This document shows, one piece after another, positions 13,690-54,110 of a stretch of DNA of 64,000 nucleotides; positions within the stretch are counted from its first letter, which is position 1, and each line of letters opens with the position of its first letter. Source of the DNA: a virus (taxonomy: Duplodnaviria > Caudoviricetes); the IMG/VR virus record IMGVR_UViG_2893071988_000005, positions 1-64,000 of that record; one strand, 5' to 3'. The position numbers were made by a program, and so were the translations under genes. Under the pieces are notes generated by a model that was given only the letters and a program-made list of their open reading frames with translations, made no database searches and was not told the origin of the DNA.

Positions 13690-13738
13690 GATACGTGTCG
13701 TATTATTTCGTTGCCAAAATCGACACGTTATGTATCAT
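13690..13738 (+). promoter_or_regulatory. PR-like promoter with two operators
   Basis: GATAC-N5-GTATT (13690), GACAC-N5-GTATC (13722); TTGCCA-N16-TATCAT. Confidence 0.65.
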
Positions 13739-13770
13739 GTGCGTATTTCCAAATCGTGAATGGAGACCAC

Positions 13771-14121
13771 ATGAAAACCCCGCGCCGGCCGAAGCCGAAC
13801 GGAGCAATCCCCATCCTCACGGCGGAGGACGGCAGCCAGTTCAAACTCACTTCCGATCAAGTGTGGTTTGTCCGCCAGTGCCTCCGCCTCTCCCAGCGCA
13901 ATCTCGGCCGTCGTCTTGCGACATCGCAGCCGAGCATCCTGCGCCTGGAGAATAAGGACCCCGCCGACCCCGGCGCACTTCATGACGGCCCGGCCGTAAT
14001 CCTGCTGTGCGGTATCGCCAAGCAGGAGGGCATTGAGCTTCCGGCGGTGCCAGTCTTCGACCGCGAAAGCGAGGCGATCAAGCGGCTGATTACCAAGCAC
14101 ACGGAGGCTGCCGCAGCATGA
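13771..14121 (+). CDS. Cro-like XRE HTH protein
   Basis: 'RQCLRLSQRNLGRRLATSQPSILRLE'; GGAG RBS. Confidence 0.78.
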   Translation: MKTPRRPKPNGAIPILTAEDGSQFKLTSDQVWFVRQCLRLSQRNLGRRLATSQPSILRLENKDPADPGALHDGPAVILLCGIAKQEGIELPAVPVFDRESEAIKRLITKHTEAAAA

Positions 14122-23123: not shown

Positions 23124-23167
23124 GAGGTGGTCTCCTGGGAGCGCATAATTGCGGTGGTGCCGGCCGG

Positions 23168-26881: not shown

Positions 26882-28651
26882 CTATTGCTTGAAGTGGTAG
26901 ACGCCCGCGCGAAGCAGGTTCGGCAGCCATTTCTTTTCCTGCGCCGTGGCAGCGGCGAGATCCACCATCTCGCCCTTCTTGCCATCGGCCAGTTCCGTGC
27001 CTGTCATCTCCAGATAGGCGGCGGCGATCTGCTGCTTCTTCAGGCCCTTGAAGTAGAGCTCTGCGTCGAAGTGCTCCAGCGGATCGAGCTTCATGGTCGC
27101 AAGGAGGCCGGTCTGTATGTCCTCGCGCGCCTCGTCGGCGACATAGCCGTGGGAGCCGGAGAGCCATTCTTCAGTGACATCCACGGTCTGCGATGCCAGC
27201 TCGGCCAGCTTGGCACCGAGTGCGTCAGGCTTCATCTTCGAGAACCGTTTGAAGCGGGTCAGGAACTTGTCGTCGGACGCTTCATCGGTGCGATGGCCGA
27301 TCTCCCGGGTGACCGTGATGCGGGAAGGTTTGGCGTTGCCGTAGCCGCCCGGCGCGTTCACCGACATGTCGAGCATGGTGACGACGAAGGCGAGGGCCGT
27401 AGGAGAGTGGGTCTGGACACGCTTTCGGACGGCGTCCGTCACGGCCTTCGCGAGGAGCGACTTCGTCGCCTTCGAGATGGCAAACGGGTCCTCCTCTTCC
27501 TTCGCGCCGCCAGAGCCGGAGACGGAGCCACTGCCCGTCTCCTTGCCGCGCTCGTAGATGCCGTAGGTCACCTCGTACTGCTTGTCATCGATGAACACGC
27601 CGGATGTCGCTCGCTGCTCGGAGGTGAATTCTCCCGGCCGCTTTTGCAGGGCCTCGTATTCCGCCTCCAGCTTTTCAAACTCGGCTTCATCAATGGTCTC
27701 GCCCTCGGAGTTCAGGATCTTCTCGAGCTGGCTGGAGCGAGCGGCTTCCGCATCGGTGTACTGGGCCTCCGGCTGGTAGCGCGCATAGTCCCAGTAGGAT
27801 TTGCCGCTCTCCGATGCGGTGACGATGAATGCCCAGCCCTCGTTGAGAGCCTCAGTCTTGAGGTCTTCGAGCCGCTGCGCCGCCAGCTTCTCGACAAGAG
27901 CGGTGTCCTCCCAGGTTTCATCGTCGGTGAAGAGGTCTGAGCGGACCGGGCCGCCGGCAGCCTGGTAGGCATCTCGGCCGACGAACTTCGCTATCCGGCT
28001 ATCGCCTTTCACCGAGTCCTTGCTGAGCAGATAGCGAACTTGGCGGGCGTTACGGTCGTAGCGGTAGAGGCCGGACCAGACTTCGAGCTGGCGCTCTTGC
28101 TCCGGCTCCAGGGTGAAGGCGGCGAGGGTGGAGAAGTCCATTTCCTCTGCCTCGAACGCGGCGAGTAGATCCGGGTGGACGTTCGCCAGCGCCAGCCTGC
28201 CCCGCACGAACTTCTCGGTCTGGCCGAAGCGCAACGCGATCTCTTCGATCGTTGCGCCGCCGTCGATCAGATCCTTGAACGCCCGAAATTCGTCGAGCGG
28301 CGACATGCCTCTACGGATGATGTTTTCCGCAAGGCTCAACTCTTCGGCCTTATGGTCATCGACATCGCGAATGATGATCGGGACCGGGTAGTCGGCCGGA
28401 ACTAAGCCTTCGGATACGAGAGACTGCACCGCAAGGAACCGGCGGCCGCCACCGAAGGTTCGGTAGCGAGCCCCTTCGAGGTCGGCGTCCGATACCGCCG
28501 GCGGGCGGACTGCGATCGGCTGGATGATGCCATTGGCGAGGATCGAGGCCTTCATTGCTTCGATCGAGTCCTTCTCCCGGTTTTTACGGACATTCTTCTC
28601 GTCGATGATGAGCCGGTCGATGGTGGTGGAGAGCTGCTGAAACTCGTGCAT
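26882..28651 (-). CDS. Long ParB/RepB/Spo0J-family protein
   Basis: 'NVRK...GIIQPIAV', 'GGGRRF', 'SLAENIIR', HTH 'IALRFGQTEKFVRGRLAL'. Confidence 0.88.
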   Translation of the reverse strand: MHEFQQLSTTIDRLIIDEKNVRKNREKDSIEAMKASILANGIIQPIAVRPPAVSDADLEGARYRTFGGGRRFLAVQSLVSEGLVPADYPVPIIIRDVDDHKAEELSLAENIIRRGMSPLDEFRAFKDLIDGGATIEEIALRFGQTEKFVRGRLALANVHPDLLAAFEAEEMDFSTLAAFTLEPEQERQLEVWSGLYRYDRNARQVRYLLSKDSVKGDSRIAKFVGRDAYQAAGGPVRSDLFTDDETWEDTALVEKLAAQRLEDLKTEALNEGWAFIVTASESGKSYWDYARYQPEAQYTDAEAARSSQLEKILNSEGETIDEAEFEKLEAEYEALQKRPGEFTSEQRATSGVFIDDKQYEVTYGIYERGKETGSGSVSGSGGAKEEEDPFAISKATKSLLAKAVTDAVRKRVQTHSPTALAFVVTMLDMSVNAPGGYGNAKPSRITVTREIGHRTDEASDDKFLTRFKRFSKMKPDALGAKLAELASQTVDVTEEWLSGSHGYVADEAREDIQTGLLATMKLDPLEHFDAELYFKGLKKQQIAAAYLEMTGTELADGKKGEMVDLAAATAQEKKWLPNLLRAGVYHFKQ

Positions 28652-29057: not shown

Positions 29058-30215
29058 TTAGGCGCGACGGGGCATGAGGAGGAACCGGACATTCGGTTCC
29101 TTCTGGTCGAGGAAGAGGCCCGCGCCATTGGCCGCTTCGTTGATTTCGAGGGAGACCTGGCCGGCGATCCGTTCGAGGATGTCGGCAAGGTAGGTGGCAG
29201 AGAACGCGACCTTGAACGGCTCATTGGCGAGGCAGGGCAGGTCCGTGCTGCCTATGCCAAAACCTTCCGATGCGCAGGTGAGCTCGGCGACCTCGCGGCC
29301 GATATCGATTGCGATCGGCGCCTGCTTGATGTCCGAGACGGAGGCAACGCGGTCGACGGCCTCACGGAGCGCGGCCGTCACGAAGAGCGCCCTGCGATCG
29401 AGGTTGGCGGGGAAGACGCGCTGGTAGTCCGGGAACGAGCCGTCAACGAGCTTGGATTCGATCTGCTCGTCGCCCAGGCAGAACAGCACGGCATCGCCGG
29501 ACACAGCGATGTCGACCACGGGCGGGGCGTCCTTGCGGCTGGCGAGCCGGAGGACTTCCTTGACCGTCGCGGCGGGGATGATTGCGCCAGCTTCGTGCAT
29601 GGCTTCGCAGCCCGCCGGCGGATCGACGGCATAGGCCGCCAGCCGGTGCCCGTCGGTGGTGACGAACATCAAGCGCTCCTGGTCGGCGTCGTATTTCAGG
29701 AACACGCCGTTCAGGTAGTAGCGGGTGGCATCGGTGGAGATGGCGAACCGGACGGTGTCCAGTGCTTTCCGCAACTCGCTCGTGTCGAGCGTGAAGCGGC
29801 AGTTCGTCGCCTTCAGTCCGTCGGCGCGGGAGAAGACCGGGAACTGATCGACATCATCGCCCGGCACAAGCTGGAGCTTAGTTCTGCCGAACATGCAGAC
29901 GGTGTGGTCGTCGTGCCTGATGAAGTCGAGGGACTGAGCGAACGGGACCTTCGCCAAGGCCGGCTGCAGGCGATGGGCATCGACCATGATCTTGAAGTCC
30001 GGCGAGACACGGCCCGGAACGAAGGTCGAGGTCTGGACATCGAGGTCGGTCCCGGTGACGACGACGCCGCCCTTCACGGCGGTGATCAGCGCCGCGCCCA
30101 GGATCGGGATGGTGGCCTTCCTCGGCACCACCTTCGTGACGTTTTCGATGGCGCGACCGAAGCGGCGATAGTCAAGCGAGGCGCTGGTCGGAACCGGCAG
30201 AGCAAGTGCGCACAT
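29058..30215 (-). CDS. dnaN: DNA polymerase III beta sliding clamp (phage copy)
   Basis: 'TIPIL...GTDLD', 'FAISTDATRYYLNGV', 'TDGHRL', 'LVDGSFPDYQRV', 'LMP'. Confidence 0.9.
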   Translation of the reverse strand: MCALALPVPTSASLDYRRFGRAIENVTKVVPRKATIPILGAALITAVKGGVVVTGTDLDVQTSTFVPGRVSPDFKIMVDAHRLQPALAKVPFAQSLDFIRHDDHTVCMFGRTKLQLVPGDDVDQFPVFSRADGLKATNCRFTLDTSELRKALDTVRFAISTDATRYYLNGVFLKYDADQERLMFVTTDGHRLAAYAVDPPAGCEAMHEAGAIIPAATVKEVLRLASRKDAPPVVDIAVSGDAVLFCLGDEQIESKLVDGSFPDYQRVFPANLDRRALFVTAALREAVDRVASVSDIKQAPIAIDIGREVAELTCASEGFGIGSTDLPCLANEPFKVAFSATYLADILERIAGQVSLEINEAANGAGLFLDQKEPNVRFLLMPRRA

Positions 30216-30244
30216 ATGGTCTCCTTTCTGTGCATGGTTGCGGG

Positions 30245-30529
30245 TTATCGGTGCGCCGCCGCGACGGAAGCGGCGGCGCATTGGGCTTTGACCTCCGGTG
30301 GTGCTCGCGCCCAAACCTCACGGCTCACCTCTTCACTGAGGGGCGTGTCGTCGTAGAGGGTGAGGCAATAGAATTCTCGCAGGTGGATCGCATATGCCGC
30401 GATGCACCAAGCGCGGCCAAAGGACTGGACGGTGAACTCGAGCAATCCGGGTTGCGGGAGCCGCTTAAGAAAGGTCAGGTCACCGTCCCAGAAACTGCGA
30501 GGTGGCGGACGAAACGTCACGGGTGTCAC
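30245..30529 (-). CDS. Small paralogue-family member 1
   Basis: 'AAYAIHLREF' and C-terminal 'VWARAPPEVKAQCAAASV'; GTGA-coupled. Confidence 0.7.
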   Translation of the reverse strand: MTPVTFRPPPRSFWDGDLTFLKRLPQPGLLEFTVQSFGRAWCIAAYAIHLREFYCLTLYDDTPLSEEVSREVWARAPPEVKAQCAAASVAAAHR

Positions 30530-31164
30530 AGCGCCACGATAGGGCAGGCCGCCAAGCCTTGCCGCTCAGCAAGCCCGGTGACGAAATCGGTGGGTGCTTC
30601 GCCGGCCTTGAAGGCGCGGAGCGTCTGTGCCGGGTCCAGTTCGAGAGCGCAGTTGAACGCGGCGGCGGAGTAGGCTGTGGCCAGCGTGGTCCAGAAGCGG
30701 CGGGATTGGCGCCAGTGCTCGAAGTTCGCGCGCTCTTGGGACCAGACGATGAAGGCGAGGGCGGGGACGGTCGGGGAGTAGCGCCCGTCGCCGTAGCGGT
30801 TGTTCTCGATGACACGGTCCCACGGGAGGTTTTCGAGGACGGCCGGCGCGAAATCGAAATCGAAGGCGCCGTGATAGTGCTGGTCGCCTTCGAGCTTCTC
30901 CCACACGGCATGGATGATGCGGCCGGCCTGCTGAGCGACCATGCGCATGCCGGATGTTCCTGCAGCGTCGAAGTCGGCGGCGAACTTGGTCTCGCGGTTT
31001 TCGAGGATCCATTCCCACGCGCAGAGGGCGGCCTCGGTCTCCGCCGAGGTGTAGGTCGTGACGCCGTGGACCTGGCGGCCGCCGGCGTCGGGAATGGGGA
31101 GCGAAGGGAAGTGGTGAACGGCCAAAGGGGTGCCGTCCACCGCGATGTTCACGGTGACGTTCAT
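30526..31164 (-). CDS. Hypothetical phage protein
   Basis: 212 aa, AGGAG RBS; 'EAALCAWE...FDFDFAPAVL'. Confidence 0.7.
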   Translation of the reverse strand: MNVTVNIAVDGTPLAVHHFPSLPIPDAGGRQVHGVTTYTSAETEAALCAWEWILENRETKFAADFDAAGTSGMRMVAQQAGRIIHAVWEKLEGDQHYHGAFDFDFAPAVLENLPWDRVIENNRYGDGRYSPTVPALAFIVWSQERANFEHWRQSRRFWTTLATAYSAAAFNCALELDPAQTLRAFKAGEAPTDFVTGLAERQGLAACPIVAL

Positions 31165-31186
31165 CGTGGTCTCCTGTTGTGGTGGG

Positions 31187-32422
31187 TTACGGTTCGATGC
31201 GGATCACTTCGCCGAACGGGACGCGGGGCGCCCACTGGTCGAAGGCCTGCTTGGTGCCGGTATGCGCCCAAATGACGGGCGCCTCCGGCTTCTCGCCGAA
31301 ATCGTAGGTGCAGAGGTCGGTGAGAAAGATGATGGCGGTAGCGTCGGAGTGGTGCCGCTTGATGTAGCGGAAGGCCTCGGTGAAGGCGGTGCCGCCGCCG
31401 CCGGCAGCGCGCAGACGGATGGTGTCTCCGGCCTGGAATGTCTCGACGTTGCAGACCGCGGCGTCGGTGTAGATGACGGTGATCAGTTCCACATTGCCGT
31501 CGTCGAGGATGCCAGATATCTCGCCGCCGCACTCGGCAAGCATGTCGTCATCGACGGAGCCGGAGGTGTCGACGCAGCAGACGATATGCCTGATACCTTC
31601 GGTCGGCACGATGCTCGGCATGACCAGGCGGTGAGGGAGAAAGCGCCGGCTCGGCCGCGCCCAGCTGTAGTCGCTCATGAACACCTCGTCGGCGAAGCGG
31701 CGAAGCCTTTCCCGCCAGTTCACCTTCGGCTTGGTGATGTCAGCGATGAGCCGCTGCAATCCGGCAGACAGCTTGCCGATGCCGTTGCCTTTTGCCTTTG
31801 CGATAGCCGCCGCCTGCGCCACCTGAGTAGCGATGGTGGTTTCGGCCGAGGCGAGACCCTCCCGGTCATAGGTTGGCGCCGCCGGCATCGTGCCGCCGCA
31901 GCCACCAGGGTCAACGCCGAGGCTCCCTGCGCCTGTGCCACCGCCGCCCGGGCTGGATGCTCCGGTGTCCTCTTCGGAGCGTCCGGACTTGCCGCGGCTC
32001 TGCGACGGCGGCTTGTCGGGGAGGAGCCGGTAGACGTCTTCGGTCGACATGCCTCCATACTGAGGGTCGTAAAGCCCGCCCTTCGGCATCTCGCCGCAGC
32101 TGCTCTCCTTCAGTTCGAAGTTGATGACATAGTCCCCGGCGATGTTCCACTTCTCCGGGTCGCGATTGCCCATGCGGGTGTGGTGGTAGAACACGTCGTG
32201 CAGGATTTCGTGAGCGAGAACAAAGACAAGCTCGCGCTTGCTCAGCTTCTCCACGAACCTGGTGTTGTAGTAGAAGCGCTTGCCGTCAGTCGCCATCGTC
32301 GGGACGCGCGGATCCTCAACGATCTCCTTTTGAACGATCATCGCCCCGAAGAACGGTTGCTCGAACATGAGTGCGGTCTTCGCGGCCAGCAGCTTGCTTT
32401 CGATGTCCAACTTCGGCGGCAT
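31187..32422 (-). CDS. DUF2201-type metallopeptidase plus vWA domain protein
   Basis: 'TMATDG', HExxH 'HEILH', 'WNIAGDYVIN', MIDAS 'DTSGS', 'GGGGT', 'FLTD'. Confidence 0.88.
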   Translation of the reverse strand: MPPKLDIESKLLAAKTALMFEQPFFGAMIVQKEIVEDPRVPTMATDGKRFYYNTRFVEKLSKRELVFVLAHEILHDVFYHHTRMGNRDPEKWNIAGDYVINFELKESSCGEMPKGGLYDPQYGGMSTEDVYRLLPDKPPSQSRGKSGRSEEDTGASSPGGGGTGAGSLGVDPGGCGGTMPAAPTYDREGLASAETTIATQVAQAAAIAKAKGNGIGKLSAGLQRLIADITKPKVNWRERLRRFADEVFMSDYSWARPSRRFLPHRLVMPSIVPTEGIRHIVCCVDTSGSVDDDMLAECGGEISGILDDGNVELITVIYTDAAVCNVETFQAGDTIRLRAAGGGGTAFTEAFRYIKRHHSDATAIIFLTDLCTYDFGEKPEAPVIWAHTGTKQAFDQWAPRVPFGEVIRIEP

Positions 32423-32948
32423 CGGTGGTCTCCTTGTCGCATGATTGCGGTTGACAGGGCGTGGCGCCTTGTTGGGCTATTTCGGCCGCCACCATTTCCG
32501 CCATTTTCTCCCAGGCATCGTTGTCCACCCGCACCTCAAACTTGACTTCGATGGGTGGCAGGATCGCGGGAGGCGGATAGTAGGGCGCGCCGAACGTCGG
32601 CAACCGGACGTATTGAAGCTTGACCAGAGGCGGCGGTTCATTTTGCGCGTTGATCGATTTCGTCACCAACGATGCAATCTCCTCGGAGGAGAGGGCCGCG
32701 ACGAGAGGAGAGGTCTCGACCGAAACCACCACATGGTCCGCGAAGACTAGACGTCCTTCACGCCGGTTCACCTTGCTGAGATGCGTAGAGCAGGTTGCAT
32801 TGAAGCGCCGGGAGCGGACCCAATACTCCAGACGGTACACACGCCTCGGATACCGTCCGTCTCGGGGGCGAAACACGAAGACAACAAGGTCGCTGTCGTC
32901 TTTGCTGCGTCGGATCCGGTAGAACCGGCGAAGTATCTCCGGGGTCAT
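32316..32948 (-). CDS. Small paralogue-family member 2 (extended C-terminus)
   Basis: 'LEYWVRSRRF' and 'LVAALSSEEIASLVTKSI'; ATGA-coupled. Confidence 0.65.
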   Translation of the reverse strand: MTPEILRRFYRIRRSKDDSDLVVFVFRPRDGRYPRRVYRLEYWVRSRRFNATCSTHLSKVNRREGRLVFADHVVVSVETSPLVAALSSEEIASLVTKSINAQNEPPPLVKLQYVRLPTFGAPYYPPPAILPPIEVKFEVRVDNDAWEKMAEMVAAEIAQQGATPCQPQSCDKETTDAAEVGHRKQAAGREDRTHVRATVLRGDDRSKGDR

Positions 32949-33343
32949 CTGCCCCTCCTTTGAAGAGAATAGGTGGTCGCCTTCGCGAGGTCGGCGGGGG
33001 AAAGGCAGGATCGGAGCACATCAATCAAGCGGTCGCCGACGAGGGGGAGCTTGGTGCTGCCGCGGAAGAACATGTCCGGGTCGATGGACTTCACCGGATC
33101 GCGTCCCTCCTTCGTGAGCTTTTCGGTGAGGGCCTTCATCCGCTTCCCGGTCGGGAGGCCCAGCGGCACGTTGGCCACGTTCCATTTCCGCTTGTCGACA
33201 TCGTAGGAAAGGATCCAGTTGGCCACTTCATGGTTGTCCCGGATGCCAATGAAGTACCACTTCATCGTTGCGCTGCCGTAGGGCTGGATGTTTTCCTCGG
33301 GATTGAAGGGGCCGAGGACCTGGCGAACCATGACCATGGTCAC
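32945..33343 (-). CDS. Small paralogue-family member 3
   Basis: 'LSYDVDKRKW' and 'LRSCLSPADLAKATTYSL'. Confidence 0.7.
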   Translation of the reverse strand: MTMVMVRQVLGPFNPEENIQPYGSATMKWYFIGIRDNHEVANWILSYDVDKRKWNVANVPLGLPTGKRMKALTEKLTKEGRDPVKSIDPDMFFRGSTKLPLVGDRLIDVLRSCLSPADLAKATTYSLQRRGR

Positions 33344-33669
33344 CTTCCTTTCTGATACTGGATGGCGGCAGCGATGGCCGCCGCCAGTTGAGCCGGTGGG
33401 ATGTGGGCACGGAGCATCTCCTTCAGGGTGTTCTCCTGGTGCTTCGGCTTGGCGCCGGGAAACATGTCGACCTGCGTCAGCCCTTTGTTAGCCGGCCGCG
33501 TGAAGGTGCGCAGAACCTTGAATGCGCGAGTGTCGAAGTAGAAGATCACCCGCCAGCCTGCCTGAGAGCCGTCATCGAGCACGCCGGAAAACTCCCAGAC
33601 GTAGCAGTCTCTATGCTGGCGCACCTTGGACGGCCCCCAGAGGGCCGTCACTTTCGAGGCCATCGTCAT
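33340..33669 (-). CDS. Small paralogue-family member 4
   Basis: 'VIFYFDTRAF' and 'LRAHIPPAQLAAAIAAAI'. Confidence 0.7.
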   Translation of the reverse strand: MTMASKVTALWGPSKVRQHRDCYVWEFSGVLDDGSQAGWRVIFYFDTRAFKVLRTFTRPANKGLTQVDMFPGAKPKHQENTLKEMLRAHIPPAQLAAAIAAAIQYQKGR

Positions 33670-33676
33670 CGCGCCC

Positions 33677-34678
33677 TCAGTTGTTGAAGAGGACGTCCTG
33701 ATTGGTGACCGTCCAGTCCACGTAGGTCTGGGTGTTCGCCAGCGCGGGATGCATCGAGACGTAGTCCATGCCGAACGTCACCTGGAAATCGCGCGGCAGC
33801 CGGCGCATGTAGGCATCCATCGCCGGGAGCTTGTGCTCGTCGGCGTGGTGAGCAAGGGCAGCGGTGATCGCGAACTGCGCGGCCTTATTCTGCGGGAGCC
33901 GTGCGCTGGCGGGATTGCGGACGATGCTGTCGACGGTCGGAAGGTCCGAGGCCATTTCGATGAAGCTCTTAAGCTCCCCGGCTGCACCCTCGCCAACGTA
34001 GCCGGCGAAAGCCCGGAGCCGGAGCATGTCATCTTCGACATCCATAACCTTGCTCAGCTCTTCCCAGGAGCGCGGGGTCGGGAACGCCATGTTGTCGCCT
34101 TCGCCCATCTGGTGAAGCAGACCGGGCCGGAAGCGGAGGAACGCGATCAGCATGGCGGGAAGCCGCTTGGCTGCGAAGTAGGCGACTGTGCTTTCGAGGT
34201 CAGCTACCACGCCGATATGGGCGAAGCGGTTGCCGAGGGCGGTCGGCATGGCCTGGGCGGCGGCCTTGTCGCTCTTGCGGTTGCCGGCGCCGACGACGCG
34301 CCAGCCCGGGGGAAGGCGGTACTCGCCGATGAAGCGGTCGAGGACGAGACCGAACGCTGCAGCCTGCATCATCGGCGGTGCGGCATTGATCTCATCAAGC
34401 AGCAGGATGCCTTCTTCGCCGTCACGTGCGACCTGCGGGAATTCGTCCGGCACCTTCCACCGGGTGGTATCGGCGGCAAGATCGGGCAAGCCCATCATCG
34501 AGACCGGATCGCGGGTGGAGCAGCGGTAGTCGATGACCTTCCAGTTTCTGCCCTTGGCGATCTGTTTCACGATTGAGGACTTGCCCACGCCGGGCGGCCC
34601 CCAGAGCATGGCGGGGCTATCGACGCGGAGGTAGGTTTCGAGCACGGCGCCAGCCGCGACGATGTTCATGTCGAGCAT
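33677..34678 (-). CDS. MoxR-like AAA+ ATPase
   Basis: 'GPPGVGKS', 'LLLDEIN', 'AGNR', 'ALGNRF', 'FPTPRSWE'. Confidence 0.9.
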   Translation of the reverse strand: MLDMNIVAAGAVLETYLRVDSPAMLWGPPGVGKSSIVKQIAKGRNWKVIDYRCSTRDPVSMMGLPDLAADTTRWKVPDEFPQVARDGEEGILLLDEINAAPPMMQAAAFGLVLDRFIGEYRLPPGWRVVGAGNRKSDKAAAQAMPTALGNRFAHIGVVADLESTVAYFAAKRLPAMLIAFLRFRPGLLHQMGEGDNMAFPTPRSWEELSKVMDVEDDMLRLRAFAGYVGEGAAGELKSFIEMASDLPTVDSIVRNPASARLPQNKAAQFAITAALAHHADEHKLPAMDAYMRRLPRDFQVTFGMDYVSMHPALANTQTYVDWTVTNQDVLFNN

Positions 34679-34717
34679 GTGTTTCTCCTGATGTGCATGA
34701 TTGCTGTGAGCGGCGGG

Positions 34718-34987
34718 TTATCGCCGCTTGGAGGTGCGGGTGATGGAGGCGGCTGCAGCCTTTGCCCTCTCTTCGTCCGGCAGCATCGTGAGGATGTAGT
34801 CCAGCGTGAGGTCTGGGCCGCGATGCTTATAGGTGGCGGGATCGATCAGGTGGCTGAGTTCGAAGCTCCGCTCAGCGACGACGTAGGTGAGCCTGTGGCT
34901 TGCGAATGTGTCCTCGGGGGGGGCGAAGTGCCATTCCAATAAGCTACCGAGATCCATGGCCTCGGACATGAGGCGCACGGCGGTCAT
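34718..34987 (-). CDS. Small paralogue-family member 5
   Basis: 'LTYVVAERSF' and 'ILTMLPDEERAKAAAASI'; ATGA-coupled. Confidence 0.7.
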   Translation of the reverse strand: MTAVRLMSEAMDLGSLLEWHFAPPEDTFASHRLTYVVAERSFELSHLIDPATYKHRGPDLTLDYILTMLPDEERAKAAAASITRTSKRR

Positions 34988-35238
34988 GGCCAGGCCTCGG
35001 TTCCGGCCAGAGACGCGGTCACGCAACGAGCAAGGATTGCCGGAGGGATGCGAGCGATGATGGCGCGTTGTCTACCTTCGCTGATGTCCCGGCGCTTGTG
35101 ATCCCGGCACACCCACTTTCGGTCCACAATCTTGTAGCTGACATAGGCGTGGGTGCGGCCGCGCCAAAGCGCCTCGAATTCAAGTTCCCAAGGCACCCAT
35201 CGCGGCGCTTCCCGGAACTCCAACTCTCTCAGCTTCAT
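34984..35238 (-). CDS. Small paralogue-family member 6
   Basis: 'VSYKIVDRKW' and 'IIARIPPAILARCVTASL'. Confidence 0.7.
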   Translation of the reverse strand: MKLRELEFREAPRWVPWELEFEALWRGRTHAYVSYKIVDRKWVCRDHKRRDISEGRQRAIIARIPPAILARCVTASLAGTEAWP

Positions 35239-35247
35239 CGGCGGCCG

Positions 35248-36156
35248 TCACTTCATGAACGCACTGATGTCGTCGAGGATGCGCTGCGCCTCGTCCGCGA
35301 TGTTTTCGCGGGCGGAATCGCTGTTGCGCAGTGTCTCCGCGTCGTGCCGGGAGAGCCGGGCCAGACGATCGGCGAGGGCGTCAAGCTCCGGATCGCCGGT
35401 GATGTTGAGCGACGGCATCACCTTGACCAGATCGCGGATGTTCTCGACCAGGCTGTCCCGGAACACGCCGGCCGTGGTCTCGCCCGGGCGGGTGGCCGGC
35501 TTGTAGTTGACCATGCGCTCATGCATGTGCTCGACGGCGCCGACGATGCGCTCGTAGACGTTCCGGACCGCGGCGCGCGCCGCCTCCTGCACATCGCGCT
35601 CGATATCCTGCCGGATGCTGTGGACCTGCTCGGCGGCGAGGTTGGCGCGGAAGTCGCCGGCAGTCGGAACCGGCATCACCTTCGTGATGAAGCTGAACTT
35701 CATGGTGATCTCGTCGGCGTCCGGGTAATCCTCCTGCCGGAACATGGTGCCGAGGTGGCGCTGCGCGTCCTGCACATGCTGCGGATAGTCCCGGAGGAAG
35801 CGCTCGACTTCTTTCTCGAACTTGTTGCGCTGGTCGGCCAGCCATTTGGCGTGGGCCATGAAGGCCTGCGCCGCCATGATCCGCTTGCCGTCGTCCATCC
35901 AGGGCAGGGTGCGGCCGTTGAACTCGTTGCGGATCTCGCCGACGAGCTTGGCGATCGGTTTCAGGGCATCCGGTTTCACGATCGCCTTGTTGTAGCGACC
36001 GGCGTCGGATGCGGCAGACTTGCTGCGGTTGACCTCGTTCGTCACATCGCGGTCCAGCCGGCGGCCCGACCACTGCGCGATGGAGAGGGATACGACCATC
36101 GCCCGCGATGCCAGGGCATTGGAGGCGAGGGCGGTGGTGGGGATATTCATGTTCAT
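35248..36156 (-). CDS. DUF3150-like phage protein
   Basis: 'VSLSIAQWSGRRLD', 'TLPW', 'FRQEDYP', 'FRDSLVEN', 'LNITGDP'; usual neighbour of MoxR/vWA pairs (recalled, not searched). Confidence 0.7.
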   Translation of the reverse strand: MNMNIPTTALASNALASRAMVVSLSIAQWSGRRLDRDVTNEVNRSKSAASDAGRYNKAIVKPDALKPIAKLVGEIRNEFNGRTLPWMDDGKRIMAAQAFMAHAKWLADQRNKFEKEVERFLRDYPQHVQDAQRHLGTMFRQEDYPDADEITMKFSFITKVMPVPTAGDFRANLAAEQVHSIRQDIERDVQEAARAAVRNVYERIVGAVEHMHERMVNYKPATRPGETTAGVFRDSLVENIRDLVKVMPSLNITGDPELDALADRLARLSRHDAETLRNSDSARENIADEAQRILDDISAFMK

Positions 36157-36186
36157 GCAGGTCTCCGTGTTGCCATGAGCGGCGGG

Positions 36187-36216
36187 AAAAGAAAAAGCCG
36201 GGCTGAAACCCGGCTT
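36187..36216 (-). terminator. Intrinsic terminator
   Basis: Minus strand AAGCCGGG-TTTCAG-CCCGGCTTTTTCTTTT. Confidence 0.75.
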
Positions 36217-36237
36217 GTGAACCATTCTGAATTGGCG

Positions 36238-36266
36238 TTGACATCGGAGTACTTTTCGAACACCCT
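36238..36266 (+). promoter_or_regulatory. Putative promoter of the CRISPR-like RNA array
   Basis: TTGACA-N17-CACCCT; predicted start ~36273 coincides with the first unit. Confidence 0.5.
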
Positions 36267-36272
36267 CAATTG

Positions 36273-36605
36273 GTCAGCGCATGGAGTTGGCGATGTCGTG
36301 GTGGTCCTGCCCACTTCGTTGGATTGAAACCCTCTAAGTGGCGGTCAAGAGATTGGCTGTTACCAAAGACCAGTCGGCGCCTGGGGCCGGCGATGTCGCG
36401 ATGGCCTTGCCTGTCGTGTTGGATTGAAACTCTTTAAGTGACGGTATGGAGCTTCCTACCCGTTGCGAGAAGTTAGCCGGCGCATCGGGCCGGCGGTGTC
36501 GCAGCGGCCGCGCCTGCTGTGTTGGATTGAAACTCTCTTATTGGTGTTTACCGGCTTTTGCCGCAACGCGGAGCGGCTACCTCAACGGGTAGCCGCTTTC
36601 GTTTC
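36273..36605 (+). CRISPR. Degenerate CRISPR-repeat-like mini-array (3 units, ~100-nt period), no cas operon in the window
   Basis: 36-nt cores GTCG...GTTGGATTGAAAC at 36295-36330, 36395-36430 and 36498-36533, each preceded by a conserved 19-nt hairpin; ends at hairpin GCGGCTAC...GTAGCCGC-TTTCGTTT. Confidence 0.65.
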
Positions 36606-36854
36606 CTGCGCCAGCGGCGCCGGGGAGTTGGTGGCAGCATTCCAGACAAAGCCATTTTCAATTGCTTCTCTTGCGGCTATCGCCTTGCTTTCTGCTGCCA
36701 TCCGCCAATTGCTATCCACCAGCGCGGCGAGTTGGGAACTGGAAAGTGTCGCCTGAACATCAGTGGGAATGCTGTTCCACATCGCATCGAAGCTGCGATC
36801 GTGGGAGCCGATGACGGAAGCCGCTTTTGCTCGATTGTACTTCACGATGCTCAT
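36582..36854 (-). CDS. Small hypothetical protein
   Basis: 90 aa MSIVKYNRAK..., GGAG RBS, lower GC. Confidence 0.6.
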   Translation of the reverse strand: MSIVKYNRAKAASVIGSHDRSFDAMWNSIPTDVQATLSSSQLAALVDSNWRMAAESKAIAAREAIENGFVWNAATNSPAPLAQETKAATR

Positions 36855-36873
36855 GGTTCGTGCTCCAGATGGG

Positions 36874-37203
36874 TTAGTCGATGACACCTACCTTTTTCAG
36901 GTGGGCGGGGTCGTATGAGGTAAGCTCCTCCTGTACGGCTGCGCAGAACCCCTCGCTGTCCCGTTCGAAATCGAACTTTGCGGCGCGGGTGCCGGCAAGG
37001 ATTGCCTGCTGTCGTTGGTCGTTGCTCCAGCCTAGATCCTGGGCGAGGTCGCGAACCTGATCGAGAGTTTTCTCGAAGTTGATGGCGAAGGCCGGGCAGC
37101 GTTCGTTCGCCCACATGAAGCGCAGGAAGGCTTGCACGTCAGCATGCGGGGTCGGCGTTATGTAGGTAGCTGCGGCCAGCATCGCAGCAAGGATCGAATT
37201 CAT
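36874..37203 (-). CDS. Small probable secreted protein
   Basis: Hydrophobic N-terminus, Cys pair (ERCP...GFCA), GAGGA RBS. Confidence 0.6.
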   Translation of the reverse strand: MNSILAAMLAAATYITPTPHADVQAFLRFMWANERCPAFAINFEKTLDQVRDLAQDLGWSNDQRQQAILAGTRAAKFDFERDSEGFCAAVQEELTSYDPAHLKKVGVID

Positions 37204-37258
37204 CGGCGCATCCTCGGATGGAAGATGCGCCGAAGGTAGTATCAGCGTCGGGTGGTGG

Positions 37259-37456
37259 TCAACCTGTGGTCGGTTCGTCCTCGCCGTCGAGGAGATCGAC
37301 GGAGACCGCTTCTCCGCCGCTGTCGAACTCGATCACCGTGAACGACGTGGCCGTTGTGCCCGGTCGCTGCATTATCTCGAACGCCTGGCGGGCGGCATGG
37401 CGAGGGGAACAAGCCTCGACAACATCGATTTCCCACATCACGAGGTAGCGGGCCAT
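37259..37456 (-). CDS. Small hypothetical protein
   Basis: 'YLVMWEIDVVEACSPRHAARQAFEIMQRP'; abuts the ligase stop. Confidence 0.65.
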   Translation of the reverse strand: MARYLVMWEIDVVEACSPRHAARQAFEIMQRPGTTATSFTVIEFDSGGEAVSVDLLDGEDEPTTG

Positions 37457-38335
37457 CTATATGTCCTCCCGAATGGTGACGATGCTGGCGATCAGCGGCT
37501 TGCCGTTCGGCCCGACGCCCTTGTACCGGAAGGTGATGCGCTTGCCCGGTAGGCTGTCACGCCGCGCCCACAGGCCCGCGCGCTGGTCGGCGGAGAGGCC
37601 GGTAGAGAGCTTGAAGCGGATACCGTTCCAGTCCACCCAGAAGCCGCCGAGCGTGCCTTTCCCGACCTTGCCGTCCTTCGCGCTTGAGCGCTTCGTCTTG
37701 CCGATCTTGTTGACGGTCGCCTCGTTGGTGTTCTGCATCTGCTCGAAGGTGCTGACGATGGTGGCTTCGTTGTCGCTGAACCGTTTGAACTTCAGCAGGA
37801 TCGCCTCGGTGACGGTGGAGCGGCCGAACTTGTAGCGGCCGTCGGGGCGGCGAAGCATCACGCCTTCGAAGCCCAAGGTGTCCACCATGGCGCGCTCATA
37901 TTCATCGAACTCGGCCATATTTCGCAGCGGCTCGTGCGGCACCAGTTCGATACGGCCGCGCTGGAAGATGGGGTTGCCGGAAAGGAGAGCCAGGCGGTCG
38001 GTGTAGGGCATGTTGGGATGCTGGAAGTGGTCGAACACATGAAAGCGCCAGTCGACTTCGCCCGGCTTGGAGACCTTGCTCTGCACCGTGGCGAGCGGGT
38101 CGGCTTCGCCGTCGGTGTAGGTGACGATTTCCCCGTCGTGGAACGTTAGGTTAGCGGCTTCGAGCGCGGTCCGGATCTGGGTGTTGCCGAGCGGCTCGAG
38201 GCGCCGGGTGACGAAGCCGTATTCCGGGTGGCCGACGATCCGCCAGCCGTCGTATTTCGGCGTGCCGATCAGCGGGAACTTCATCTCCTCGCGCTCGACG
38301 GGGGAGGCGAGGACGGGTTCAAACTTTGTGGGCAT
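37457..38335 (-). CDS. ATP-dependent DNA ligase
   Basis: Motif I 'KYDGWR', 'DGEI', 'FHVFD', 'EGVMLR', 'LLKFKRF', OB-fold tail. Confidence 0.9.
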   Translation of the reverse strand: MPTKFEPVLASPVEREEMKFPLIGTPKYDGWRIVGHPEYGFVTRRLEPLGNTQIRTALEAANLTFHDGEIVTYTDGEADPLATVQSKVSKPGEVDWRFHVFDHFQHPNMPYTDRLALLSGNPIFQRGRIELVPHEPLRNMAEFDEYERAMVDTLGFEGVMLRRPDGRYKFGRSTVTEAILLKFKRFSDNEATIVSTFEQMQNTNEATVNKIGKTKRSSAKDGKVGKGTLGGFWVDWNGIRFKLSTGLSADQRAGLWARRDSLPGKRITFRYKGVGPNGKPLIASIVTIREDI

Positions 38336-38362
38336 GGTGGTTCCTTGTTCGCATGATTGCGG

Positions 38363-38680
38363 TTATCCCGCCGCGTACTGGATGGATGCGGCGATGCACT
38401 GGGCTTTGATTTCTGGCGATATCCTCGACAGGAGGACGGCGTGGAGGCGGTCACATACGCAGTGAGGCCGTGGCCTGCAGGTGCCGTGATAGCTCCAAGC
38501 GGGCAGATACGCTCTTTCGCCGATCTGGTAGCAAATGTACCAGTGCGGCCCCTCGGCCCCCTCGAACCCATCTAGACGCCCAAAGCGGATGTACAGAGAC
38601 GAACCTCCAAGCGTCTCGCAGGTGATCGCCATCTCGTCGATGAGCCGGTGAGCGAGGCTTTCACCGCTCATGGCCGCCAT
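38363..38680 (-). CDS. Small paralogue-family member 7
   Basis: 'ICYQIGERAY' and 'LLSRISPEIKAQCIAASI'. Confidence 0.7.
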   Translation of the reverse strand: MAAMSGESLAHRLIDEMAITCETLGGSSLYIRFGRLDGFEGAEGPHWYICYQIGERAYLPAWSYHGTCRPRPHCVCDRLHAVLLSRISPEIKAQCIAASIQYAAG

Positions 38681-39054
38681 GTCCCCGCCGCAAACCTGAT
38701 TGAGGCGGCAGCGCAGTACGCCAGGTCTCGTTCGCTTAGGGTGGCGCGAAACAGAGACGTGATTTCTTCGGGCATTCGGGCCGGAACATCGAGCGCATAA
38801 AATTGCCCTCCCTGGCCAATCGGGGGAGGTGCGGCGCTCCGCGGGAATCGCATGTGTTCAGAGGTGAACACGCGATCAGCAAGACTGTATCGAAGGGCGT
38901 AAGCGCCGTCCCCGCCATCGGGCCAAGTCCATCTCACTTCGTCTGATGATTGCCAGGGCATGCGATCGGGGTACTGTTCAATGATGCTGCGAATATGGTC
39001 GTCGAAAGACAGCGCAGGGCGTGAAACAAACTTGCCGAAGGGGATTCGTACCAT
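38668..39054 (-). CDS. Small paralogue-family member 8
   Basis: 'LRYSLADRVF' and 'FRATLSERDLAYCAAASI'; TGATG-coupled. Confidence 0.7.
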   Translation of the reverse strand: MVRIPFGKFVSRPALSFDDHIRSIIEQYPDRMPWQSSDEVRWTWPDGGDGAYALRYSLADRVFTSEHMRFPRSAAPPPIGQGGQFYALDVPARMPEEITSLFRATLSERDLAYCAAASIRFAAGTWRP

Positions 39055-39350
39055 CAGCCGATCCTTCGCAGGGACGCGTTCACGCACATCGCAACCTGCT
39101 CCGGGCTGAGCATCGCCCGCAACTCATCGCACTGATCGTCCGACGCATACCGGATAGTTGTGTCGCCTGCATCGCCTCCAGCCGGGCAGGTGTAGAAAAA
39201 GGCGCGGAAGAGGCGCTCGGCGGCGAGGTAGGAGAGAAAGAAGCCGTCGTCATATGGATCGCGATACTTGAACCAGATGAAGTTGGCCTTGTTGAAGTCG
39301 AGCGAAAGCCCGGCCGTGGGGAGTGGAGCGTCGGGATCAGGCCGCGCCAT
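39054..39350 (-). CDS. Small paralogue-family member 9
   Basis: 'LSYLAAERLF' and 'LRAMLSPEQVAMCVNASL'; AGGAG RBS. Confidence 0.7.
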   Translation of the reverse strand: MARPDPDAPLPTAGLSLDFNKANFIWFKYRDPYDDGFFLSYLAAERLFRAFFYTCPAGGDAGDTTIRYASDDQCDELRAMLSPEQVAMCVNASLRRIG

Positions 39351-39867
39351 TGCGATGCTCCTGCTGCCGGCTGGAGAGGACACCGCGCAGGACGGCAATG
39401 CAAAGCGCGATAGCCTCCCGCCCGGAGGGGCGGAGGTCCACATCGGTGAGGCCGGCCCAATCGACAGCCGGGCTCAGTTCGGAGAGCAGGCGCGCTCCGT
39501 GCGTAGGGCAGTTGAAGTCCGGCTGCACCCATGCGTCATCGGAGACGCAGCAACTGGCGACACGGTAGGACCAGCCGGGCAGGGCGATGCGCACCAGCGT
39601 GCGGGCAGCGTCGAGAGAGGAGGTGAACGGCAAGCTGTCCCAGATCAGACCGAGATCGCCGTTGTCGTACTGCAGGCCGCACATGCCGCGCTGGTTCTTG
39701 TGGTGCGACCAGGTCGGATAGTTCGCCCATGCCCAGGCATAGCCGGTCCTATCGCCGAGCATTTTCTCTGCGCCGACGCGCAGCGCGGCATCGATCTTGG
39801 CATCAAGCCACCGGCAGGGGCCGGGTGCAGCCGCCAGCAGATTGATGAGGGAGGGGAGATCGGTCAT
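39337..39867 (-). CDS. Hypothetical phage protein
   Basis: 'LAAAPGPCRWLDAKI...PFTSSLDAARTL...LPGW...AIALCIA'. Confidence 0.7.
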   Translation of the reverse strand: MTDLPSLINLLAAAPGPCRWLDAKIDAALRVGAEKMLGDRTGYAWAWANYPTWSHHKNQRGMCGLQYDNGDLGLIWDSLPFTSSLDAARTLVRIALPGWSYRVASCCVSDDAWVQPDFNCPTHGARLLSELSPAVDWAGLTDVDLRPSGREAIALCIAVLRGVLSSRQQEHRNGAA

Positions 39868-46143: not shown

Positions 46144-46278
46144 GGGAGGTCTCCTTGGTCGCATAATTGCGGGGGTGGCCGTGCGGCCGTGGAATGCCGG
46201 GCGTGCCGACATTGCAGAGGCGCACGAAAAAGCCGCCCGGAGGCGGCTCTAGGAAGCATCTATTGAGGCAGGCGAGCG

Positions 46279-46774: not shown

Positions 46775-46828
46775 GATGGTCTCCATAGTTCGCATGATTG
46801 CGGTGTTTGGGGCGCGGCACAGCCGCAA

Positions 46829-46933: not shown

Positions 46934-47072
46934 GAAGGTCTCCATTGGCGCATGATTGCGGTTCGGCGTGACGCCGCGAAAAGGCGTACAGGTGCGCGAC
47001 CTTTCGTAGGGACACGATAGAGGGGGGGGGCGGTGCCCGGAGGGGAGGAGCCCCGGGCACCGCATGACGGCT

Positions 47073-47606: not shown

Positions 47607-48239
47607 GGTAGTTTCTCCATCGTTCGCATAATTGCGGTTTGAAGCGGATTGCTTCTGAAAGGCCAAAGCCCATTGCCCTTTCAGAAACGATCCTCTTGTG
47701 AGACCGCCAACTTTCGCCGACGGCCTCAGAATTCAACGTGATTTCTTTTTCTCGGTGCCCAAGCCTGTATCGGTTGAGGGGTGCAGCACTGAGCGAGTCC
47801 ATCGCTTGCCGGTTATCTTTCCGCCACCTAACGCTTTCGCGTCGTGCATGTCTTTCGCTGTGCCCAAGGGTTTCATTCCCCTTTCCAGTGCATGATGAAC
47901 ATCATGCTTCGCGCCCCTTTTGCCCTACGGCTTTCGCCGCTTCGGCCGGAACCTTCACCGATGCAAGTATTTTGTTGCCCGTACCTTGCCGCACGTCCTT
48001 CCCCGCAACACTGGCTTTGTCTTGCCAGCTACCTACGGCTCTCGCCGTATTGGGTCGCCCGATTCGCAAACCGCATTCCCTGTTGATCCGCTGTAAAGCT
48101 CAATCCACCTACCTGACCGCCGAAGCGATAACCTGAGGCAACCAAAACCGTACTTGGCAGGAAACCGTTGTCTTGCTGTCAAATAACCTTCGGGAAGTCC
48201 CGAACCCCGAACCGCTGTGTATCGCCGTTCGATGATTGA

Positions 48240-52569: not shown

Positions 52570-54110
52570 TGGCGAATGCCCTGGACCGATTCATCGGGTT
52601 CTTAAACCCGAAAAGAGGAGCAGAGCGTGCCGCATATCGCCTCCGGTCGGAGATTCTAAATGGTGCGTACCGCAGCTATGAAGGCGCGTCATCAGGGCGC
52701 CTTGCTCAAGGCTGGCGCGCTCCGCCGGGTGATGCGGACACGCATATTGCACGATCAGGTCAGCAGCTTCGTGATCGTTCGCGGGAGCTTGTCCGCAATA
52801 ATCCGCTCGCGGCGAAGATCGTAACAGTCCACGCGAACAACCTCGTAGGGCCAGGGATTATGCCCCGCGCAAAGACGGGGAAACCGGAAACGGACAAGAA
52901 GATCAACGATCTTTTTGACGAATGGTCGGAGCAGTGCCACGTAGACGGTGCAACCAATTTCTACGGTCTCTGCTACATCCTTGCTCGTTCGATGGTGACC
53001 GACGGCGAGCAGTTTGTTCGCCGCCGCCGCCGCCGCATCGAGGACGGCCTCGCCGTTCCTCTACAATTGCAACTTCTTGATTCAGAGTTTTGCGATTGGG
53101 GGAAGACGACCGTTGTCGGTGCCGCAGAGATCATCGGCGGCATCGAGTATGATGTGATTGGCCGCCGTCGCGGCTACTGGATGTTCCCCAGACACCCGCA
53201 CGGTCGGACAGCGAAGGCGGAGGCAGTCGTTAGCTCATTCGTTCCGGCCGACGATATAGCGCACGCCTTCGAACCGCTGGCCAACCAAACGCGTGGCGTC
53301 CCATGGCTTGCGCCGGTCATGACCGAACTGAAGGATCTTCGTGACTACGAGCTTGCGGAGAATATCCGGAAAAAGGTCGAAGCGTGCCATGTCGGGGTTG
53401 TGCGGCCCAAACTCGGCGACATCGATCCGAATGTCGGTTTAACGGAGACGCCCGGCTCCAACTCGGCTCTCCGGGATATCTATGGGAACCCGGTCGACCG
53501 AATGGAGCCCGGTATGTTCGCCATAGCGTCTGACGGGGCAGACATAACGTTCAACAACCCGGCGATCTCGGCCGGGGTGGAAGCCTACATTCGCACCCGC
53601 CATCGCAGCATCGCCGCCGGCGCACGGCAACCGTACGAGCTGATGACGGGCGACTTCAGCCAGGCGAACTTCGCATCCGGTCAACTTGGATTGCTGGATT
53701 ACCAACGGTTCATCTCCTCGATCCAGTGGCATTACCTTATCCCTCAGGTGATGCATCGGATGTACGGTTGGTTTCTCCAGGCCGGCCGAGAGAACGGAAA
53801 AATCCCGTTGAACCTCAAGGTGGTGGTCGAGTGGCAGCCTCCTGAGTTCGAAAAGATCAACCGTCTCGATGACGCGCGTGCCGACCTCCTAGAGGTTCGT
53901 ATGGGCAAGCGATCGATGCCGGAGATCATCGCGAAAACGGGCCGTGATCCGGCGACCGTCGTGGCGGAGAACGACGACTTCTTCCAGATGGTCGACAAGA
54001 CGAAGAGCAAACTCGTGCTCGACGCCGACCCGCGGAAGGTTTCGATCAACGGCCAGGCTCAGGCCGCAAATCAAGTAGACAAAGGAGACGGCGGTGCCGC
54101 AGGCTCTTGA
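52569..54110 (+). CDS. Portal protein (lambda family)
   Basis: 'YEGAS', 'LRDRSRELVRNNP', 'QTRGVPWLAPV', 'YELMTGDFSQANFAS'. Confidence 0.93.
   Translation: MANALDRFIGFLNPKRGAERAAYRLRSEILNGAYRSYEGASSGRLAQGWRAPPGDADTHIARSGQQLRDRSRELVRNNPLAAKIVTVHANNLVGPGIMPRAKTGKPETDKKINDLFDEWSEQCHVDGATNFYGLCYILARSMVTDGEQFVRRRRRRIEDGLAVPLQLQLLDSEFCDWGKTTVVGAAEIIGGIEYDVIGRRRGYWMFPRHPHGRTAKAEAVVSSFVPADDIAHAFEPLANQTRGVPWLAPVMTELKDLRDYELAENIRKKVEACHVGVVRPKLGDIDPNVGLTETPGSNSALRDIYGNPVDRMEPGMFAIASDGADITFNNPAISAGVEAYIRTRHRSIAAGARQPYELMTGDFSQANFASGQLGLLDYQRFISSIQWHYLIPQVMHRMYGWFLQAGRENGKIPLNLKVVVEWQPPEFEKINRLDDARADLLEVRMGKRSMPEIIAKTGRDPATVVAENDDFFQMVDKTKSKLVLDADPRKVSINGQAQAANQVDKGDGGAAGS

Follow-up and report, generated by a model that had tools for sequence, protein, structure and literature searches.

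Pairs formed by a MoxR-type AAA+ ATPase and a protein with a von Willebrand factor A (vWA) domain often act with a third component or with dedicated partners, according to the accessible part of a published account (PMC7911831). In bacteria, ternary conflict systems built around such a pair have been distinguished as VMAP, iSTAND, FtsH and beta-propeller types, and the logic proposed in the available sections of that work is that the vWA protein captures a substrate peptide and MoxR then remodels the complex (Kaur et al. 2020, PMC7159879). For phages, a pair of MoxR and metallopeptidase-vWA genes was described in group 2.2 jumbo phages together with a proposed role in virion assembly (Iyer et al. 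2021, PMC7824862), which, in the portions of the literature available to us, is the only proposal seen for the phage pair. Here we analyse a locus of this kind in the 78,496-bp single-contig virus record IMGVR_UViG_2893071988_000005 (G+C ~62%), whose first 64 kb are the stretch of 64,000 nucleotides (nt) called the window below. Its minus-strand replication/accessory (early/replication) module holds nine copies, c1 to c9, of a gene for one small protein, and c4, c3 and c2 stand between the MoxR and vWA genes. Systems in which further, diversifying components accompany a MoxR-vWA pair are already known; what is new is a phage version in which an expandable array of small paralogues is set between the two genes.

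Nine paralogues of one small-protein family

A first-pass annotation of the window had pointed to nine open reading frames (ORFs) that share two short motifs despite little overall identity, and all nine were found on the minus strand where it had placed them. Both motifs are visible in the nine translations and fall in register in a MAFFT alignment; pairwise BLAST among the copies gives weak matches, yet consistently aligns their C-termini. Only two columns are invariant, the Arg of motif 1 and, as had been claimed, the Ala of motif 2, and this holds both for the nine copies and for a wider set of 64 sequences. Motif 2 lies 4–9 residues from the C-terminus in eight of the nine copies, the exception being c2, which continues for ~110 residues beyond it. 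A third common element, a W-x-F strand upstream of motif 1, had escaped the first-pass annotation.

The kinship of the copies was examined by a leave-one-out procedure, in which a hidden Markov model (HMM) built from eight copies was compared with the complete set of 1,147 six-frame ORFs that reach 40 amino acids (aa) in the 78,496-bp genome. The omitted copy always ranked directly behind the eight training copies; seven copies had E values between 3.6e-8 and 9.3e-6, c2 had 0.0014 and c1 had 0.016, while the best unrelated ORF across these searches reached E 0.089–1.9. Against the 64-sequence profile, which includes it, c1 scores E 8e-14. The same profile finds the nine copies and no tenth in the genome, the next ORF having an E value of 0.25. 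The paralogy that the first-pass annotation had asserted is hence confirmed: the nine ORFs are true paralogues of one small-protein family, present in exactly nine copies. Family members are ~85–130 aa long.

The copies form runs of three, two, three and one, each of which, as noted before, stops immediately ahead of a conserved upstream element; the copies of this element at the run ends are exact before the ligase and vWA genes and have three mismatches each before MoxR and dnaN. The runs are tandem and translationally coupled, most junctions consisting of overlapping or abutting stop and start codons. For c9, c8, c5 and c3 the likely starts are shorter than the longest ORF (Table 1). The frame of c2 does not close until it has crossed the upstream element and entered the vWA gene by 107 nt (extension region 32316-32650); its orthologue P0027 (194 aa) has the same C-terminal extension, and the last-in-array copies of several relatives likewise carry C-terminal extensions.

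The upstream element is ~30 nt long and reads CCGCAATCATGCGA, 2–4 nt, GGAGA, ~5–8 nt and ATG. It precedes larger genes, namely ligase, MoxR, vWA, orf212, dnaN and others, and has at its core a dyad of 4 bp whose arms are 4 nt apart. In front of MoxR, GCCA-N4-TGGC replaces CGCA-N4-TGCG in six of the eight aligned relatives. Over 18 sites the dyad positions pair in 93% of cells, and two of the four pairs change on both sides, possibly through one inherited event. The element might form an RNA hairpin ahead of the ribosome-binding site or, alternatively, serve as a palindromic protein site.

Structure prediction was applied to two of the nine copies. The AlphaFold2 model of c4, obtained with the 64-sequence alignment, has a mean predicted local distance difference test score (pLDDT) of 83.7 and a predicted template modelling score (pTM) of 0.71; it comprises antiparallel strands at residues 7–18, 22–31, 36–44 and 49–58, a low-confidence linker at ~60–80, and helices at 82–89 and 92–108. 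The c3 model, computed from a separate alignment of eleven c3-type sequences, has the identical topology with an extra helix in the linker (pLDDT 79.6, pTM 0.70), and the ESM Atlas has its own model of c4 with a pTM of 0.67. The shared fold that had been anticipated is thus returned from two separate alignments: the family is predicted to adopt a four-stranded antiparallel beta-meander and, at the C-terminus, a helical hairpin, joined by a linker that is variable and disordered. The motifs map onto strands 2–4 and the last helix of the model. The first-pass annotation had regarded that helix as a constant docking element; in the c4 model, however, it is packed into the fold, with a pLDDT of 88–96 over the last 30 residues, and because the helix belongs to the confidently predicted core, conservation of its small residues needs no docking role.

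Neither the fold nor the sequences could be assigned to a described family. Foldseek returned no PDB entry at E ≤0.001 (best E 0.22 for c4 and 0.19 for c3) and no significant match in BFVD (best E 0.042, TM score 0.41), and all matches of the ESM Atlas structure search had TM scores below 0.5. The nine copies gave no significant match in Pfam (best E 0.26) or PHROGs (best E 0.019), and the three copies compared with NCBIfam and PADLOC gave none. The best match of the PDB profile search, p-hydroxybenzoate hydroxylase (E 0.0053), was judged spurious. A relationship to FG-GAP/beta-propeller blades was considered, as P0010, an M23 peptidase with FG-GAP repeats, scores through six repeats of 6–10 bits each; it was rejected because each repeat match is insignificant by itself. 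Kinship with 13 neighbouring proteins (12 that have no Pfam match above cut-off, and the DUF3150 protein) was likewise rejected, with hhalign probabilities of at most 0.5%. Literature searches returned no description of the small family, which has no name to search by. The family is therefore previously undescribed, with no counterpart in Pfam, PHROGs, PDB or BFVD.

The family is rarely met: among 1,835,955,588 representative proteins, the nine-sequence profile found 62 at E ≤0.001. Five of these are the window's own and two are long repeat proteins matched only via many weak repeats; the remaining 55 are 65–194 aa long and have the same layout as the window copies. A separate homologous-protein search with the 64-sequence profile found six proteins. 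The ten clusters that were looked up have 1–9 members each, all labelled hypothetical and originating from Pseudochrobactrum and Pseudorhizobium, and matches to genome contigs came from Brucella tritici and B. pecoris (both of which we take to be former Ochrobactrum), Rhizobium sp. CF080 and Pseudochrobactrum. When 12 candidates per genome were scored, the family was carried by one of 401 genomes of a host-order sample, the query genome itself, and by 5 of 400 genomes of a GTDB-family sample. In four whole host genomes all matches were confined to one prophage locus, and three of the five viral records checked are classed as proviruses. The carriers of the family form a clade made up largely of temperate phages and prophages of Hyphomicrobiales. 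Soil metagenome runs contain up to half of the sequence words of the region; two metagenome scans (A3; P0065) gave no match and are uninformative on absence.

Arrays between the MoxR and vWA genes in related elements

The first-pass annotation had suggested examining whether the family co-occurs with a trio of MoxR, metallopeptidase-vWA and DUF3150 genes. Fourteen IMG/VR loci (here designated by L numbers) were found through MoxR at 52–56% identity, and in all 14 the order is MoxR, family copies only, and vWA; these loci have 3–7 copies, which account for gaps of 1,032–2,510 nt. Searches that started from the family led to the same layout in four of four bacterial genome loci and in one new viral locus, whereas seven further viral matches fell on contigs already known. 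In four further genomes of the GTDB-family sample, which have 1–5 copies, vWA is adjacent in all four and MoxR lies beyond the array in all three cases where the contig continues. Across all loci a MoxR-vWA gap thus holds 1–7 tandem copies. As the same element was filed twice in some cases (L003/L004 and L007/L008, of the same layout each, and L006/L019), these loci correspond to ~17–18 distinct elements, and the MoxR-vWA gap is filled by family copies in every one of them.

Extra copies recur before the DUF3150 gene and before orf212/dnaN, but the stretches from DUF3150 to MoxR and from vWA to dnaN carry changing cargo, unlike the gap between MoxR and vWA. Thirteen of the 14 loci reached via MoxR also have the DUF3150 gene, which was not seen within the 14.6 kb examined of L027; it is present in three of the four profile-found loci L044–L047, the short L046 being the one that lacks it. 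As judged from gene order, the linkage of the family to MoxR and vWA is strong. Co-occurrence is thus seen as a recurrent, tight link to MoxR and metallopeptidase-vWA, but not in the opposite direction, as a plasmid carries the trio without the family. Because that MoxR/DUF3150/vWA trio has no such small genes, the family is an add-on to the trio and not a core part of it.

A tree of 79 copies, in which many forks are unresolved, groups subtypes across phages and shows that their order within the arrays is kept: a 'first' type that is absent from the window, then the c4, c3 and c2 types. This order persists across phages whose MoxR proteins are only 48–56% identical. Local duplications occur besides, such as c1/c6/c7 in the window and three or four copies (mid2–4) in L013. 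The diversified repertoire proposed in the first-pass annotation was accordingly retained in part: a conserved core with a fast-changing remainder is seen, but diversification is not free-running, since orthologous subtypes stand in fixed order.

Comparison of closely related loci gave rates of change. Between L001 and L002, MoxR is 95% identical (rate of nonsynonymous change, dN, 0.028) and vWA 88% identical (dN 0.073), while the family orthologues are 57–74% identical (dN 0.20–0.41); between L009 and L014, the values are 93% for MoxR, 94% for vWA and 61–71% for the family orthologues. Amino-acid change in the family is ~3–14 times faster than in the flanking genes. With a ratio of nonsynonymous to synonymous change (dN/dS) of 0.19–0.35 for the L001/L002 copies, the family fold is under purifying selection while its amino-acid change outpaces that of the flanks. 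The family exceeds the flanks in synonymous change (dS) too, the dS of one pair not being computable, and this hints at exchange by recombination.

Contigs of soil run X2 cover all 30 bins of 30200-39400 with mosaic likeness. Differences amount to 141 of 1,277 positions in c2–c4, 28 of 1,597 in MoxR-c5-c6, none of 622 in the ligase and 1 of 706 in c8–c9, although the pieces may be of different strains. The orf212/vWA part of the region is ~8% different in this run, and in one of its contigs 162 nt of the vWA linker region (31846-32009) are replaced by 171 other letters. Contigs of an RNA library (run X24) match c7 and c8 without differences; DNA carry-over is possible and coverage is too thin for expression claims, and in regions uncovered by runs X5, X14 and X24 the data are too thin for claims of absence.

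Candidate roles of the small proteins

From these results we propose, with a probability of roughly 0.45, that the copies serve the MoxR-vWA-peptidase module in an accessory capacity, as its adaptors or its clients. They would be lineage-specific accessory subunits of a chaperone/peptidase module, and the MIDAS (the metal ion-dependent site of adhesion) of the vWA protein and the MoxR ring would act either on the copies or by way of them. As adaptors, the copies would select targets; as clients, they would be remodelled by the machine or cut in their linker. The fast-changing surfaces may face variable partners, probably host proteins. Such an accessory role is suggested by several properties taken together: one predicted fold, coupled tandem genes, a slot that stays fixed over ~50% divergence, fast-changing surfaces on a constrained core, and intact catalytic motifs in the neighbouring machine. 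It is also suggested by the dedicated partners on which MoxR/vWA pairs generally act, as in CbbQO, NorQD and RavA-ViaA. A parallel was counted in favour, namely that the lineages of phages MinM2 and At2 carry unrelated small genes immediately upstream of vWA.

Several points weigh against this proposal. Six of the nine window copies lie outside the MoxR-vWA gap, beside DUF3150, ligase and dnaN, and the plasmid trio is present without the family. All carriers belong to one phage clade, so that shared ancestry could preserve the order without any functional tie. No conserved acidic residue presents itself as a MIDAS ligand, since one Arg and one Ala are the invariant residues. The gap may be nothing more than a tolerant place where small accessory genes collect, and it is synteny that suggests the tie of the copies to MoxR and vWA in the first place: the copies are located and inherited together with these genes.

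The nearest competitor, which we consider appreciably less likely, is that the copies are stand-alone host-interaction proteins (for example, of counter-defence or host takeover) that are co-transcribed with early/replication genes, the gap being a tolerated hotspot of insertion and duplication. Fast evolution together with a dS above that of the flanks is what would be expected of exchanged accessory genes, and the copy number of 1–7, the lineage-specific duplications in the window and in L013 and the scatter of further copies near ligase, DUF3150 and dnaN fit the same picture, as do the plasmid trio without copies and run X2, in which c2–c4 are diverged while the ligase and c8–c9 are near identical. 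It is harder to reconcile with such a hotspot that the gap is filled by the family alone in every locus, while the stretches flanking the cassette carry changing cargo, and that the subtype order is kept across phages with strongly diverged MoxR proteins. Moreover, the PADLOC comparison of three copies returned no defence-related model.

It is improbable that the copies are small nucleic-acid-binding proteins of the replication/recombination module. With their beta-beta-beta-beta-alpha topology, the copies might work in the manner of single-strand binders of the PC4, Pur-alpha and Whirly types. Conserved aromatics and the invariant Arg lie on strands, and the neighbours include dnaN, ligase, ParB, RecT and exonuclease genes. 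Among 62 stored family sequences (55 from outside and 7 from, or near-identical to, the window) the median isoelectric point (pI) is 10.0 and 74% of values exceed 9. In the window, however, such values are confined to c2, c3, c4 and c6 (pI 9.5–10.1), and the other five copies are neutral or acidic (pI 4.6–6.7). The weak Foldseek rows of c3, which name a single-stranded DNA-binding protein (SSB), the PC4 homologue of phage T5, Pur-alpha and the WGR domain of PARP, have E values of 0.2–0.9 and TM scores below 0.3 and are not significant; superposition on the PC4, Pur-alpha and SSB rows of the c4 and c3 models, with TM scores of 0.19–0.33, was not significant either. Many fast-evolving paralogues would be unusual among replication proteins, and such a role would leave the constant position between MoxR and vWA unexplained.

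That the ORFs and motifs arose by chance in GC-rich DNA may practically be dismissed, as far as computation allows: although a genome of this composition is full of long spurious ORFs and third-position G+C is 0.60–0.69 in c1, c2, c6 and c8 against 0.80–0.88 in neighbouring genes, the leave-one-out statistics, the confident and concordant folds of c4 and c3, orthologues under purifying selection in ~20 other loci and the RNA-library contigs, with the reservation on DNA carry-over given above, all speak against it.

If the copies are indeed accessory to the MoxR-vWA module, a bolder version, which we regard as a long shot, is that they are exchangeable target selectors of an ATP-driven degradation machine encoded by the phage, docking by their conserved core on the vWA/MoxR complex and presenting, by means of their fast-evolving surface and linker, different host proteins (of defence, nucleoid or replication) to the metallopeptidase. 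In that case the array would amount to a repertoire of specificities that is heritable and can expand, and this would be the first function for the MoxR/metallopeptidase-vWA pair, whose vWA-type gene occurs in 628 phage records. A role against host defence is speculation. Should the copies prove to be adaptors or clients, the idea of MoxR-vWA 'ternary' conflict systems would extend from bacteria to phages; should they prove to be independent, the array would still be a clean case of an accessory family that evolves fast and varies in copy number at a fixed slot. In either case, a clade with a variable array between the two genes offers a concrete handle on them, with the small proteins as candidate partners. 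These results overturn nothing, yet they make the function of a widespread phage module testable.

The locus and its counterparts in described systems

The record, that of a soil-type phage, has tailed-phage genes on the plus strand beyond 50 kb (terminase large subunit, portal, fused protease/major head protein, tail/baseplate), and the closest named relative of its terminase is only 46.6% identical. A single 736-aa ORF at 54094-56304 (phrog_4523, E 7e-186) apparently unites the head maturation protease with the major head protein. RecT and exonuclease genes lie on the minus strand at 7.7–10.3 kb. When the 10-kb region was compared with phage and plasmid collections by megablast, nothing matched, near-identical records possibly being absent from those collections.

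In the direction of transcription, the order of genes is o217, c9, c8, c7, ATP-dependent DNA ligase, three small ORFs, the DUF3150 protein, c6, c5, the MoxR-type ATPase, c4, c3, c2, metallopeptidase-vWA, orf212, c1, DnaN, a helix-turn-helix protein and a 589-aa ParB-like protein (Table 1). The product of orf212 (30526-31164, 212 aa) has no family match, and the gene recurs between a family copy and dnaN in L004, L009, L010, L011, L017 and L047. The ParB-like protein (26882-28651) matches the PRTRC-system ParB model TIGR03734 with E 1.4e-23 and 83 bits, far under the cut-off of 278.6 bits.

Table 1. Positions of the small paralogues, the upstream elements and the adjoining module genes in the window (E, leave-one-out value for c1 to c9 and Pfam value for the other genes).
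Feature	Position	Strand	Remarks
Dyad element and Shine-Dalgarno before ligase ATG	38349..38362	-	like copies at 34693-34706 (MoxR), 32437-32450 (vWA) and 30230-30243 (dnaN)
Further element copies	23141-23154, 46159-46172, 46790-46803, 46948-46961, 47624-47637	-	weak copy near 31165-31194
c9	39054..39350	-	98 aa from ATG 39350, AGGAG upstream; open frame to 39443; pI 4.6; E 8.9e-8
c8	38668..39054	-	128 aa; ATG 39054 shares one base with c9 stop; alternative GTG 39087; E 4.5e-7
c7	38363..38680	-	105 aa; 13-nt overlap with c8 end; stop abuts ligase upstream element; E 1.4e-7
c6	34984..35238	-	84 aa; directly after DUF3150 gene; pI 10.0; E 9.3e-6
c5	34718..34987	-	89 aa from ATG 34987, ATGA overlap with c6 stop; TTG 35026 less likely; E 9.8e-7
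c4	33340..33669	-	109 aa; first gene after MoxR; pI 10.1; E 3.6e-8
c3	32945..33337	-	130 aa from ATG 33337; extra helix in linker (predicted); E 1.5e-6
c2	32316..32948	-	210 aa; family domain residues 1-~100 and C-terminal extension; E 0.0014
c1	30245..30529	-	94 aa from GTG 30529 (or GTG 30520, 91 aa); between orf212 and dnaN; E 0.016
MoxR-type AAA+ ATPase	33677..34678	-	333 aa; AAA_5, E 8.9e-7
Metallopeptidase-vWA	31187..32422	-	411 aa; DUF2201_N, E 1.7e-43; DUF2201, E 1.4e-21
DUF3150 protein	35248..36225	-	325 aa; DUF3150, E 2.4e-7; third of conserved trio

The P-loop GxxGxGKS is invariant among 13 MoxR orthologues of 48–56% identity, and all 14 vWA orthologues compared retain HExxH in the peptidase and DxSGS, T and D in the MIDAS (H71, E72, H75, D285, S287, G288, S289, T345 and D369); because these peptidase and MIDAS residues do not vary, the MoxR-vWA machine is probably active. 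Relatives of the vWA protein, counted regardless of whether a MoxR gene lies beside them, are found in 628 of 50,697 phage records, among them those of N4-like, rV5-like and jumbo phages. Relatives of the DUF3150 protein occur in 3 phage records versus 60 plasmid records. The DUF3150 protein also weakly matches the co-chaperone HscB in its C-terminal domain, staying under the cut-off in both Pfam (HSCB_C, E 0.0019) and NCBIfam (hscB, E 0.0062).

Small genes beside the vWA gene are met in other phages as well. Synechococcus phage MinM2 (OQ594354.1, L015) has three tandem ~112-aa paralogues at 12995-14021, between DUF3150 and the VWA-like gene of a cassette homologous to the present one, and Acinetobacter phage At2 has one 134-aa gene between AAA+/MoxR and vWA. 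Homology of the MinM2 triplet to the family was rejected (HMM E >0.5, hhalign probability 0.5%), and so was that of the At2 protein. The one plasmid examined, NZ_OW485604.1 of Rhodovastum atsumiense, shares with the window the same three families in the same orientation and a long ParB-like gene nearby, whose product is of similar length to the 589-aa protein of the window. Its gene order is AAA, DUF3150, VWA, whereas in the window DUF3150 precedes MoxR, and its trio is contiguous, with no small paralogues.

With the bacterial systems, as the available text of Kaur et al. describes them, the locus has in common a MoxR AAA+/vWA pair with a MIDAS that is encoded with further conserved, diversifying components, but those systems come from multicellular bacteria and the present one from a phage (PMC7159879). 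The third component here consists of 1–7 small (~100 aa) paralogues, set apart by size and predicted fold from what was published for VMAP-C (~7 strands and 6–7 helices), iSTAND and FtsH; the small proteins match no Pfam family and were assigned to none of the third-component types, namely VMAP, inactive STAND NTPase, FtsH or vWA-fused beta-propeller. The vWA protein here has an N-terminal metallopeptidase, whereas that of Kaur et al. has C-terminal effector domains in the sections accessible to us. The pair of Iyer et al. is closer in this respect, as it has a MoxR AAA+ gene beside a vWA gene with an N-terminal HExxH metallopeptidase (PMC7824862). In the accessible part of that description the two genes are adjacent and virion assembly is proposed, whereas here they are split by an array of small paralogues and lie in a replication module with DUF3150, ParB, dnaN and ligase, distant from the structural genes.

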